A DNA stretch of 64,000 nt from Escherichia coli (lineage in GTDB: Bacteria; Pseudomonadota; Gammaproteobacteria; Enterobacterales; Enterobacteriaceae), in the NCBI RefSeq assembly GCF_030384885.1, contig NZ_CP128613.1, one strand, 5' to 3'. Positions within the stretch are counted from its first letter, which is position 1. The number at the start of each line of letters is the position of its first letter. The notes under the pieces were generated by a model, which saw only the letters and a program-made list of their open reading frames with translations, was not told the origin of the DNA and did not search any database. The translations under genes and the position numbers were made by a program. This document shows positions 57,248 to 58,895 of this stretch, piece by piece.

Positions 57248-57254
57248 ATCGCTG

Positions 57255-58895
57255 TTGAGGCACATCTTAACGGCGAAAAATTTTTTGTCAAACCCGATTT
57301 TTAAATTCCTCAACTGTTTGCCGTTTCTATCAACAGTTTGTTGCATTTGCAGACAATTTGTCGGCAAAAATCTTTGCAGCTTTGCTGATTCTCCCTCATC
57401 ATTTGAAATGTGGTTTCACTTTTTGCAATTAAGGTCGGCTTTGAATATCTCCTCTGCTTTACGCCAGGTTGTTCACGGCACTCGCTGGCACGCCAAACGC
57501 AAGAGTTACAAAGTGTTGTTCTGGCGCGAGATAACCCCGCTTGCTGTTCCTATCTTCATGGAGAACGCCTGTGTCCTGTTGATGGGTGTCCTGAGCACTT
57601 TTCTGGTCAGCTGGCTGGGAAAAGATGCGATGGCCGGCGTGGGATTGGCGGACAGCTTCAATATGGTCATTATGGCTTTTTTTGCAGCTATCGATCTTGG
57701 TACTACTGTCGTTGTGGCATTTAGTCTCGGTAAGCGGGATCGACGACGAGCGAGGGTGGCGACGCGACAGTCATTGGTGATCATGACGTTGTTTGCCGTA
57801 CTGTTGGCAACGCTTATTCATCATTTTGGCGAACAAATTATTGATTTCGTCGCGGGTGATGCCACGACAGAAGTTAAAGCACTGGCGTTGACTTATCTGG
57901 AGCTGACGGTACTCAGTTATCCAGCAGCTGCCATCACTTTGATTGGTAGCGGGGCACTTCGTGGTGCAGGGAATACGAAAATACCGCTACTGATTAACGG
58001 TAGCCTGAATATTCTTAATATTATTATTAGCGGCATATTGATTTACGGCCTTTTCTCCTGGCCGGGACTGGGATTTGTCGGGGCTGGGTTGGGGTTAACC
58101 ATTTCTCGTTATATTGGCGCAGTGGCAATTTTGTGGGTGCTGGCGATTGGTTTTAATCCTGCGCTAAGGATTTCGTTAAAGAGCTATTTTAAACCGCTGA
58201 ATTTTAGCATTATCTGGGAAGTCATGGGGATTGGTATTCCAGCGAGTGTCGAATCAGTGTTATTTACCAGTGGTCGGTTATTAACCCAAATGTTCGTTGC
58301 CGGGATGGGGACCAGTGTTATTGCCGGGAATTTTATCGCGTTTTCAATTGCGGCTCTTATCAACTTACCCGGAAGTGCGCTCGGCTCTGCTTCTACGATC
58401 ATTACAGGCCGAAGGTTGGGGGTAGGGCAGATAGCGCAAGCAGAGATTCAGTTGCGGCATGTGTTCTGGCTGTCCACTCTTGGATTAACGGCCATCGCCT
58501 GGCTAACGGCTCCCTTTGCTGGGGTTATGGCATCGTTTTACACCCAGGATCCACAGGTTAAACATGTCGTTGTGATTCTGATTTGGCTAAATGCTTTATT
58601 TATGCCTATTTGGTCTGCCTCATGGGTGCTACCCGCTGGATTTAAGGGTGCTCGCGATGCCCGTTACGCCATGTGGGTTTCTATGTTGAGCATGTGGGGT
58701 TGCCGGGTTGTAGTCGGTTATGTGCTGGGAATCATGCTTGGCTGGGGTGTGGTTGGTGTCTGGATGGGAATGTTTGCCGACTGGGCTGTGCGGGCCGTGC
58801 TGTTTTACTGGCGCATGGTTACTGGACGTTGGCTGTGGAAATACCCTAGATCTGAGCCGCAAAAGTGTGAAAAAAAGCCAGTTGTGTTGAAATAA
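57255..58895 (+). CDS. yeeO: MATE-family efflux transporter YeeO (true start probably downstream of 57255)
   Basis: 12-TM MATE-like sequence; ORF as drawn begins 8 nt from the tRNA-Asn 5' end, so the first ~50-100 codons are doubtful. Confidence 0.8.
   Translation: MRHILTAKNFLSNPIFKFLNCLPFLSTVCCICRQFVGKNLCSFADSPSSFEMWFHFLQLRSALNISSALRQVVHGTRWHAKRKSYKVLFWREITPLAVPIFMENACVLLMGVLSTFLVSWLGKDAMAGVGLADSFNMVIMAFFAAIDLGTTVVVAFSLGKRDRRRARVATRQSLVIMTLFAVLLATLIHHFGEQIIDFVAGDATTEVKALALTYLELTVLSYPAAAITLIGSGALRGAGNTKIPLLINGSLNILNIIISGILIYGLFSWPGLGFVGAGLGLTISRYIGAVAILWVLAIGFNPALRISLKSYFKPLNFSIIWEVMGIGIPASVESVLFTSGRLLTQMFVAGMGTSVIAGNFIAFSIAALINLPGSALGSASTIITGRRLGVGQIAQAEIQLRHVFWLSTLGLTAIAWLTAPFAGVMASFYTQDPQVKHVVVILIWLNALFMPIWSASWVLPAGFKGARDARYAMWVSMLSMWGCRVVVGYVLGIMLGWGVVGVWMGMFADWAVRAVLFYWRMVTGRWLWKYPRSEPQKCEKKPVVLK

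Follow-up and report, generated by a model that had tools for sequence, protein, structure and literature searches.

The yeeO gene (b1985) of Escherichia coli K-12, which encodes an FMN/FAD exporter of the MATE family comparable with EmmdR of Enterobacter, is the same gene as the one analysed here. The window, the 64-kb stretch of E. coli DNA under study, is 98% identical to MG1655 at yeeO and has the neighbourhood ldtA-asnV-nac-cbl-asnU-yeeO-asnW-yeeN in common with it. The yeeO product scores 188.8 bits against Pfam PF01554 MatE (cut-off 24.9), in two stretches, and 908.3 bits against the EmmdR/YeeO equivalog NCBIfam NF007562 (cut-off 465). The K-12 reference protein is 547 residues long, whereas the present comparison supports 484; its 63 additional residues correspond, in the present reading, to regulatory DNA.

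Two other described systems are closely related to what is found at this locus. Operators of PlaR (YiaJ) and KdgR, such as that between plaR and yiaK, consist of a palindrome with A/T-rich flanks, and both are also present at yeeO. The second is the over-extension of a longest open reading frame (ORF) beside a divergent gene, with the same chance-open promoter ORF, a spurious Shine–Dalgarno (SD)-like sequence and the true non-ATG start with its SD sequence lying downstream. The sole twist of yeeO relative to the usual case would be an intermediate ATG fixed by a repressor site, which mimics the conservation of a start codon.

The asnU gene is divergent from yeeO. The longest yeeO ORF (57255..58895, plus strand) is TTG-initiated and 546 codons long, and its first base lies 8 nt from the 5′ end of the tRNA, leaving a gap of 7 nt, as the earlier note had described. 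In NC_000913.3 the 547-residue protein begins at a TTG one codon further upstream (57252), 4 nt from asnU; this codon is CTG in the window. The RefSeq/PGAP start is ATG 57408 (495 residues) in a strain 100% identical to the window, and the equivalent of TTG 57441 in E. albertii, Pluralibacter and others. Versions of 547, 495 and 484 residues are held in public databases; the 495- and 484-residue versions have the exact window sequence, and the 484-residue protein has already been called, as an exact match, on 37 public contigs. The alternatives named in the earlier note were correctly numbered: ATG 57408 is codon 52 (495 residues, MWFHFLQ) and ATG 57558 is codon 102 (445 residues, MENACVLL). 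Non-ATG starts had been left out of account there. The elements of the region are as follows.

57172..57247, minus strand: tRNA-Asn(GTT), asnU in K-12 (ARAGORN; Rfam tRNA, 72.6 bits; MG1655 annotation)
57249..57286, plus strand: intrinsic-terminator-like element (terminator scan), a hairpin at 57249–57276 followed by A5T6
57255..57440, plus strand: 5′ extension of the longest ORF, codons 1–62, best read as non-coding intergenic DNA; coding in K-12 RefSeq
57264..57291, minus strand: asnU promoter, −35 TTGACA (57291–57286), 16-nt spacer, −10 TAAGAT (57269–57264)
57325..57358, no strand: conserved block with the inverted repeat CAACA-GTT-TGTTG (alignment of orthologous loci)
57366..57402, plus strand: putative yeeO sigma-70 promoter, with an A-tract (57366–70), −35 region CTTTGCAG (57372–79), a spacer of 16–18 nt and −10 region TCATCAT (57396–57402)
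57401..57421, no strand: putative KdgR/PlaR-type (IclR-family) operator ATTTGAAATGTGGTTTCACTT, core TGAAA-N5-TTTCA at 57404–57418, containing ATG 57408
57419..57429, plus strand: length-variable linker from operator to SD sequence
57430–57434, plus strand: SD sequence UAAGG, 6 nt before TTG 57441 (duplex energy and conservation)
57441..58895, plus strand: proposed yeeO coding sequence, TTG start at codon 63 of the longest ORF, 484 residues (MNISSALRQVVHG..., MNISSALRQ...), stop at 58893–58895
57537..57611, plus strand: transmembrane helix 1 (TM1), approximately residues 95–119 of the longest ORF (Kyte–Doolittle), containing ATG 57558

The gene was compared across 80 orthologous Enterobacterales loci, with some counts made over 65 non-redundant aligned sequences or over 71, 76 or 81 loci. 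The column at 57441 holds TTG in 59 of the 65 aligned sequences. Four of the remaining six (L074–L077) are a misaligned Pantoea group (Pantoea, Mixta and Edaphovirga) that also bears the TTG, and the other two come from Brenneria and Pectobacterium, both distant. Among the codons at 37 other conserved leucine columns, the share of TTG is 37% or less and that of any single codon 81% or less. The SD sequence pairs with the 16S 3′ end at −5.9 kcal/mol for TTG 57441, compared with +0.4 kcal/mol for ATG 57408 and +1.5 kcal/mol for ATG 57558; its AGG core is conserved at 0.78–0.97, and an SD sequence is present 4–13 nt before the TTG in 71 of 81 loci.

The pattern of conservation changes at the same point. 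Past TTG 57441 it is 0.83/0.88/0.60 by codon position, showing third-position wobble, whereas before it the values are flat, at 0.69/0.74/0.70 and, in the 5′ extension, 0.63/0.63/0.64. Past the TTG, E. coli and Citrobacter differ at 7/2/16 first, second and third codon positions; 13 of the codon changes are synonymous and 6 nonsynonymous, and within Escherichia (L004) there are 8 synonymous changes and no nonsynonymous ones. The TTG therefore combines SD spacing, codon invariance and the onset of coding-type selection, the features of an SD-led start. ORFs of 473–485 codons are kept in all 71 loci, although 44 of them have no in-frame upstream ATG; because the upstream frame is broken in most genera and yet this ORF is retained, a start at the TTG is favoured. 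The protein models agree with this position. NF007562 (470 positions) aligns from residue 66 of the longest ORF, 2 residues past TTG 57441, and 28 residues precede the region homologous to solved MATE structures when counted from this TTG, versus 90 in the 546-residue form. The resulting short N-terminal tail before TM1 fits the MATE expectation of a cytoplasmic segment of roughly 3–36 residues.

This comparative evidence makes it likely that YeeO is translated from TTG 57441 as a protein of 484 residues, with the 186 nt upstream forming a divergent intergenic region, and ribosomes of E. coli presumably use this codon. TTG is a weak start codon, and the PGAP (495 residues) and K-12 RefSeq (547 residues) annotations disagree with its use. 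The supplements of the tetracycline-profiling, Cappable-seq and SMRT-Cappable-seq papers contain no start-site or transcription start site (TSS) entries for yeeO.

The longest ORF could itself be real, starting at TTG 57255 (57252 in K-12), encoding 546 or 547 residues and overlapping the asnU promoter. In Escherichia and several Citrobacter the frame stays open for 68 codons ahead of the conserved TTG, 547-residue annotations exist for Citrobacter proteins (83–84% identity), and an SD-like GAGGA lies 7 nt upstream of TTG 57255 (−6.0 kcal/mol). The GAGGA, however, is simply the acceptor stem of the tRNA, an invariant sequence, read as its reverse complement, and an mRNA carrying it would need to begin antisense within the tRNA gene, past the cbl/asnU terminator. 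The upstream frame is open for at least 60 codons in 12 of 71 loci and closed in the other 59. Only Escherichia, the Citrobacter freundii complex and K. pneumoniae keep it open as far as the tRNA, and in the last of these the ‘ORF’ runs antisense straight through the tRNA, which shows that such openness is accidental. Over codons 14–51, differences between E. coli and Citrobacter fall evenly on the codon positions (10/7/13, and approximately 10/8/13 for the 5′ extension), with 3 synonymous against 14 nonsynonymous changes; the start codon itself varies between CTG, TTG and GTG.

The extension also contains the asnU promoter, the putative yeeO promoter and the putative operator, and the hairpin and its T-run occupy codons 1–11. 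The hairpin folds at −15.6 kcal/mol (z −3.5; none of 200 shuffles as stable) and is strong only in Escherichia. The overlap with the tRNA promoter that the earlier note had pointed out is borne out by a near-consensus promoter in codons 4–13, which matches the consensus at 10 of 12 positions in a promoter scan and has both hexamers invariant in all tRNA-bearing loci. Translation from TTG 57255 is accordingly very improbable; a frame open by chance, together with the accidental GAGGA, would have misled longest-ORF annotation.

Further downstream, ATG 57408 could be the main start in E. coli, as in the PGAP/RefSeq WP_ protein, its 11 extra residues forming a lineage-specific N-terminal tail. ATG is a stronger start codon than TTG, and the column at 57408 is ATG in 49 of 65 sequences. 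In 27 of 71 loci, among them those of Escherichia, the C. freundii complex, S. enterica diarizonae, Kluyvera and Klebsiella, it shares the reading frame of yeeO with no stop in between. Against this, the codon has no SD sequence; it is ACG in a Pluralibacter-like clade; and in most genera its frame is interrupted by indels of 1–4 nt or by an immediate stop. The spacing from ATG to TTG is 33, 32, 31, 30 or 29 nt among the loci, and indels in the linker, which is conserved at 0.58, break the frame in many genera. A stop follows the ATG directly in Kosakonia (ATG-TGA) and Superficieibacter (ATG-TAG), the segment is frameshifted in E. albertii, and one genome labelled E. coli (L006) carries a TAA 4 codons ahead of the TTG. 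The L006 haplotype has no identical match in complete E. coli genomes, so this variant is taken to come from a divergent lineage and yields no estimate of frequency in the population. Between E. coli and Citrobacter, the 11 codons from ATG to TTG differ 4/2/3 by position, without periodicity, with 1 synonymous against 6 nonsynonymous changes.

The conservation of the ATG is accounted for by the operator, as its bases lie in the left half-site and adjoining spacer rather than marking a translation start. The core TGAAA-N5-TTTCA has a single match in the 64-kb window (0.15 expected), and is exact in 53 of 76 loci and within one mismatch in 66. The full site fits the palindrome ATnTGAAA(C/T)-N3-GTTTCAnTT, the consensus given for the PlaR box, whose printed form is one T short of the stated 21 bp (PMC6958661). 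The site in the plaR-yiaK spacer, ATTTGAAATCAAGTTTCGCAT, is identical to it at 16 of 21 positions. A top PlaR gSELEX peak was placed ‘between yeeO and asnU’, and yeeO is listed in the KdgR regulon predicted by comparative genomics; both sets of data are too coarse to pin the exact site. These matches suggest that KdgR or PlaR would repress yeeO at this operator in vivo. The operator lies inside the coding sequence in the K-12 and PGAP annotations, whereas here it belongs to the promoter and 5′ leader, 20–40 nt upstream of the start.

A putative yeeO promoter precedes the operator. Its −35 block (column conservation 0.93) and −10 block (0.86) flank a spacer conserved at 0.62, and their spacing is conserved as well; both blocks persist in genera without the tRNA. 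The hexamers TTTGCA/TTGCAG and CATCAT match the consensus at only approximately 8 of 12 positions, and the promoter scan did not pick them up. The predicted TSS falls at approximately 57408–57411, and a TSS on or beside ATG 57408 would leave that codon no 5′ UTR. Use of ATG 57408 as the main start is, on balance, unlikely. In E. coli itself the codon is in frame and open, and the comparison leaves room for some initiation there, so a longer minor isoform of YeeO may be made. A leaderless mRNA starting at the operator A, giving a second isoform 11 residues longer, is an improbable route to it; if it were true, the repressor box would also serve as the opening codons, and start-site choice would set the isoform ratio. 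Candidates for such an isoform are the genera with the operator ATG in frame (Escherichia, the C. freundii complex, Klebsiella and Kluyvera). The K. pneumoniae yeeO has been cloned from the operator ATG and gave no MIC phenotype, a result that is uninformative on the start.

Several other elements were considered in this region. A conserved upstream ORF that would begin at the operator ATG, with coupling to the TTG, was rejected: the frame of the ATG relative to the TTG is 0, 1 or 2 among genera, and the mini-ORFs end differently (at TGA or TAG in Kosakonia and Superficieibacter, and at the TAA of the SD sequence in others). A sigma-54 promoter (GG-N10-GC) at CGGCAAAAATCTTTGCA was rejected as well, since many genera lack its GG or have it displaced by 1 nt. 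A riboswitch or other structured RNA in the 5′ region was also dismissed, as a permissive Rfam scan matched the tRNA alone and the leader folds no better than shuffled sequences. For the CAACA-GTT-TGTTG block, candidate roles are upstream activation of the asnU promoter or the binding of a transcription factor.

Starts within or just before TM1 would bring the protein to 445 residues (ATG 57558) or 460 residues (GTG 57513), near the size of NorM and PfMATE (approximately 460 residues), and GTG 57513 lies roughly 4–6 residues ahead of the region homologous to solved MATE structures. Hydropathy places the first strongly hydrophobic segment from approximately residue 95, consistent with the roughly 100 preceding codons reported in the earlier note. 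Pfam MatE begins at residue 99 of the longest ORF, and homology to solved MATE structures begins at residues 91–93, equivalent to chain residues 4–37. ATG 57558 thereby falls in the middle of TM1 by Pfam, structure alignment and hydropathy alike, and initiation there would remove half of the helix; it also has no SD sequence. Residues 63–100 are under purifying selection, and are therefore translated, and the third base of GTG 57513 is just 35% conserved. A start in this region is hardly credible: ATG 57558 is excluded by the predicted domain boundaries, and GTG 57513 is already refuted by the selection deduced for the codons upstream of it.

The earlier note had doubted the start of the longest ORF and looked for the real one downstream. 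That part is sound, but neither ATG offered in its place holds: the segment from ATG 57408 is length-variable, stop-bearing and shows non-coding-type change, and ATG 57558 fails on its position in TM1. Its question of whether the N terminus is conserved at the protein level has a divided answer, with residues 63–100 constrained as protein and residues 1–62 conserved only as DNA motifs.

In the reading favoured here, ribosomes would start YeeO at TTG 57441 behind UAAGG (57430–57434), producing a 484-residue MATE transporter, and the 186 nt swept in by the longest ORF would be an ordinary divergent intergenic region. Rightward from the tRNA, this region would comprise the minus-strand asnU promoter, a stretch of low conservation, the conserved block, the weak yeeO promoter and the operator, an IclR-type TGAAA-N5-TTTCA site overlapping the predicted yeeO transcription start. 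Direct observations are how conservation, reading frame and selection are patterned, the match to the operator, and where TM1 lies.

The proposed change of the yeeO start is an ordinary annotation correction, largely known already, and implies no new biology. The K-12 547-residue and PGAP 495-residue forms of YeeO probably both include residues that are never made, and expression clones, structure models and topology predictions derived from the long forms would carry the error in the start. Under these annotations the PlaR/KdgR sites and the asnU promoter are scored as ‘intragenic’; a start at TTG 57441 would restore a normal divergent regulatory region of 193 nt, with the KdgR/PlaR box where a repressor site is expected. 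The locus illustrates that a conserved ATG may be an operator triplet and not a start codon.

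Translation of yeeO, which encodes a MATE-family flavin exporter, probably starts at TTG 57441, giving a 484-residue protein, as judged by comparing orthologous DNA. The other in-frame candidates are TTG 57255 (546 residues; codons are numbered from here), ATG 57408 (M52, 495 residues) and ATG 57558 (M102, 445 residues). The gene order is ldtA-asnV-nac-cbl-asnU-yeeO-asnW-yeeN, with the following features around the start.

57172–57247, minus strand: tRNA-Asn gene (asnU)
57249–57286, plus strand: hairpin followed by A5T6 (−15.6 kcal/mol, z −3.5), lying in the first 11 codons of the long ORF
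57255–58895, plus strand: longest yeeO ORF, TTG start, 546 residues
57291–57264, minus strand: near-consensus asnU promoter (TTGACA, 16 nt, TAAGAT), within codons 4–13 of the long ORF
57325–57358: conserved block TCAACAGTTTGTTGCATTTGCAGACA, with the perfect inverted repeat CAACA-GTT-TGTTG
57366–57379: A-tract and CTTTGCAG, putative yeeO −35 side
57396–57402: TCATCAT, 16–18 nt 3′ of the CTTTGCAG block, putative yeeO −10
57401–57421: KdgR/PlaR-type palindrome ATTTGAAATGTGGTTTCACTT (core TGAAA-N5-TTTCA), containing ATG 57408

The window is E. coli chromosome; its yeeO region shares 100% identity with strain 2013C-4282 and about 98% with the majority of other strains. The asnU–yeeO intergenic haplotype is uncommon: when 5,426 complete E. 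coli genomes were compared over positions 57100–57700 (601 nt), only 5 reached 99% identity or more, nearly all being at 95–99%. A 4.3-kb stretch holds three tRNA-Asn(GTT) genes (54763–54838 and 57172–57247 on the minus strand, 58996–59071 on the plus strand). The two flanking yeeO, asnU and asnW, are inverted copies of each other, which would allow inversion of yeeO by recombination between the two. Asn tRNA genes are integration sites of islands, and several papers mentioning yeeO in the literature search deal with the pks and yersiniabactin islands; no island is present at this locus in the window, where asnW is followed by yeeN, as in K-12. A second strong tRNA-Asn promoter, that of asnW (58950–58985, plus strand; TTGACA, 17 nt, TAATAT), begins only about 55 nt past the yeeO stop codon, with asnW at 58996, and no obvious yeeO terminator was seen between that stop and the promoter. 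In the gap that separates the cbl stop (57134) from the 3′ end of asnU (57172), a stem-loop, AAAGCCCGC-TATAAA-GCGGGCTTT (57140–57170), flanked by A-runs and T-runs, resembles a bidirectional terminator shared by the cbl and asnU sides; the weak, sub-threshold Rfam ‘leader’ matches there are probably mere terminator-like matches.

Existing annotations of the yeeO start disagree. The MG1655 RefSeq protein has 547 residues and starts at a TTG one codon farther 5′, 4 nt from asnU, which is CTG in the window; the PGAP start for a window-identical strain is ATG 57408; and E. coli versions of 547, 509, 495, 494 and 484 residues occur in the public protein collection, of which 495- and 484-residue versions match the window protein exactly. 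The uncertainty of the true start raised in the earlier note therefore describes the real state of the databases. That note correctly placed the longest ORF 8 nt from the tRNA-Asn 5′ end, overlapping the minus-strand tRNA promoter, with about 100 codons ahead of the first strongly hydrophobic segment (from near residue 95), and its positions and lengths for M52 and M102 are also right. Its doubt about the annotated long start is upheld, but neither of its replacements is supported, TTG 57441 being the best candidate. The literature search found no initiation-site profiling, N-terminal peptide or transcription start datum for yeeO.

Because annotated starts hinge on the gene caller (orthologues found by protein search are annotated at 471–488 residues in most genera and 547 in Citrobacter), upstream DNA was compared directly across 80 orthologous loci, one per species, from Enterobacterales. 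Among 65 non-redundant aligned sequences, 59 have TTG as the leucine codon at 57441 (in A-L-N-I-S). The six exceptions comprise four misaligned Pantoea-group loci (L074–L077; Pantoea, Mixta, Edaphovirga), in which the TTG is present, and the distantly related Brenneria and Pectobacterium. Across 37 other columns with leucine at least 90% conserved, TTG accounts for at most 37% and any single codon for at most 81%. UAAGG lies 6 nt 5′ of TTG 57441 (AGG core conservation 0.78–0.97), and pairs with the 16S 3′ end at −5.9 kcal/mol; the corresponding energies are +0.4 for ATG 57408 and +1.5 for ATG 57558, which has no Shine–Dalgarno sequence (SD). Averaged over columns, conservation at the three codon positions is 0.83/0.88/0.60 3′ of the TTG and flat 5′ of it (0.69/0.74/0.70 from ATG to TTG; 0.63/0.63/0.64 in codons 14–51). 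Between E. coli and Citrobacter, differences by codon position are 7/2/16 3′ of the TTG (codon changes: 13 synonymous versus 6 nonsynonymous), 4/2/3 from ATG to TTG (1 versus 6) and 10/7/13 in codons 14–51 (3 versus 14); within Escherichia, 8 synonymous and no nonsynonymous changes lie 3′ of the TTG. ORFs of 473–485 codons are kept in all 71 loci having TTG and SD, of which 44 lack an in-frame ATG between the nearest 5′ stop and the TTG, and only 12 are open for at least 60 codons 5′ of it. In the long ORF, the match to the curated NCBIfam EmmdR/YeeO model (470 positions) starts at residue 66. Together with the variable ATG-to-TTG spacing and broken frames given below, these observations place the onset of protein-level constraint at TTG 57441. 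One compared record, L028 (‘Chryseobacterium sp. 18061’), is a typical enterobacterial asnU–yeeO locus, nearly identical to L035 (‘Citrobacter sp. 18056’) and encoding a protein 78% identical to E. coli YeeO; it is probably mislabelled or contaminated.

The far-upstream start is strongly disfavoured. Its apparent SD, GAGGA (−6.0 kcal/mol), is the tRNA acceptor stem in reverse complement. An mRNA carrying it would need an antisense start within the tRNA gene. The start codon varies (CTG, TTG, GTG), and the hairpin in codons 1–11, strong only in Escherichia, looks like a plus-strand terminator that would halt cbl read-through or antisense-tRNA transcription; it is composed partly of the asnU −10 and leader region. 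In K. pneumoniae (L046) the frame is open for 107 codons 5′ of the conserved TTG, antisense across the entire tRNA-Asn gene; openness here is therefore accidental, and spurious long ORFs arise easily.

ATG 57558 was excluded. TM1 spans about residues 95–119 by hydropathy, the Pfam MatE match starts at residue 99, and homology to solved MATE structures (Aq128, NorM, PfMATE) starts at residues 91–93, corresponding to chain residues 4–37. The 445-residue form would thus begin in the middle of TM1, missing half a helix.

The conservation of ATG 57408 has another reading. The palindrome core is the sole match in the 64-kb window (0.15 expected), and of 76 orthologous loci, 53 carry the operator exactly and 66 carry it with at most one mismatch. 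Its DNA is kept in any frame (‘*NVVS’ and ‘*NEVS’ are the same DNA in another frame), the ATG-to-TTG distance being 33 nt in 37 loci (3 with ACG for ATG), 32 in 23, 31 in 3, 30 in 2 and 29 in 1. The site reads ATG-TGA in Kosakonia and ATG-TAG in Superficieibacter, ACG replaces ATG in a Pluralibacter-like clade, a TAA lies four codons 5′ of the TTG in one genome labelled E. coli, and E. albertii carries a frameshift. The operator fits the published PlaR box ATnTGAAACnnnGTT(T)CAnTT, and one of the two strongest PlaR gSELEX peaks lies ‘between yeeO and asnU’ (Shimada et al., PMC6958661), a spacer of only 4 bp under the K-12 annotation. The best-established PlaR site, in the plaR–yiaK spacer (ATTTGAAATCAAGTTTCGCAT), is identical to the yeeO operator at 16 of 21 positions, and a 2004 study, as cited in PMC6127512, includes yeeO in the predicted KdgR regulon. 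The palindrome match, its conservation in every frame and these reports argue that ATG 57408 is held constant as operator sequence. Because this ATG is in frame and open in E. coli, it possibly yields a minor 495-residue isoform there, maybe via a leaderless transcript. A K. pneumoniae yeeO clone beginning at the operator ATG showed no phenotype, a result that says nothing about the start.

Both asnU promoter hexamers are invariant in all loci having the tRNA, and 57292–57322 is poorly conserved. The 57325–57358 block could be a site for FIS or another transcription factor; it is placed about 70–100 nt 5′ of where asnU transcription starts and about 20 nt 5′ of the putative yeeO −35. Conservation is 0.93 in the CTTTGCAG block and 0.86 in TCATCAT, against 0.62 in their spacer, and both blocks are kept even in genera without the tRNA; from this pattern we infer a weak sigma-70 yeeO promoter, with only about 8 of 12 consensus matches in its hexamers. 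Transcription would start at about 57408–57411, on the operator, and the mRNA leader would be about 32 nt, SD included. The revised start is an annotation correction, the gene and its adjacent regulatory elements being known, and is nothing categorically new. If the promoter reading is true, ATG 57408 would be left without room for a ribosome-binding site.
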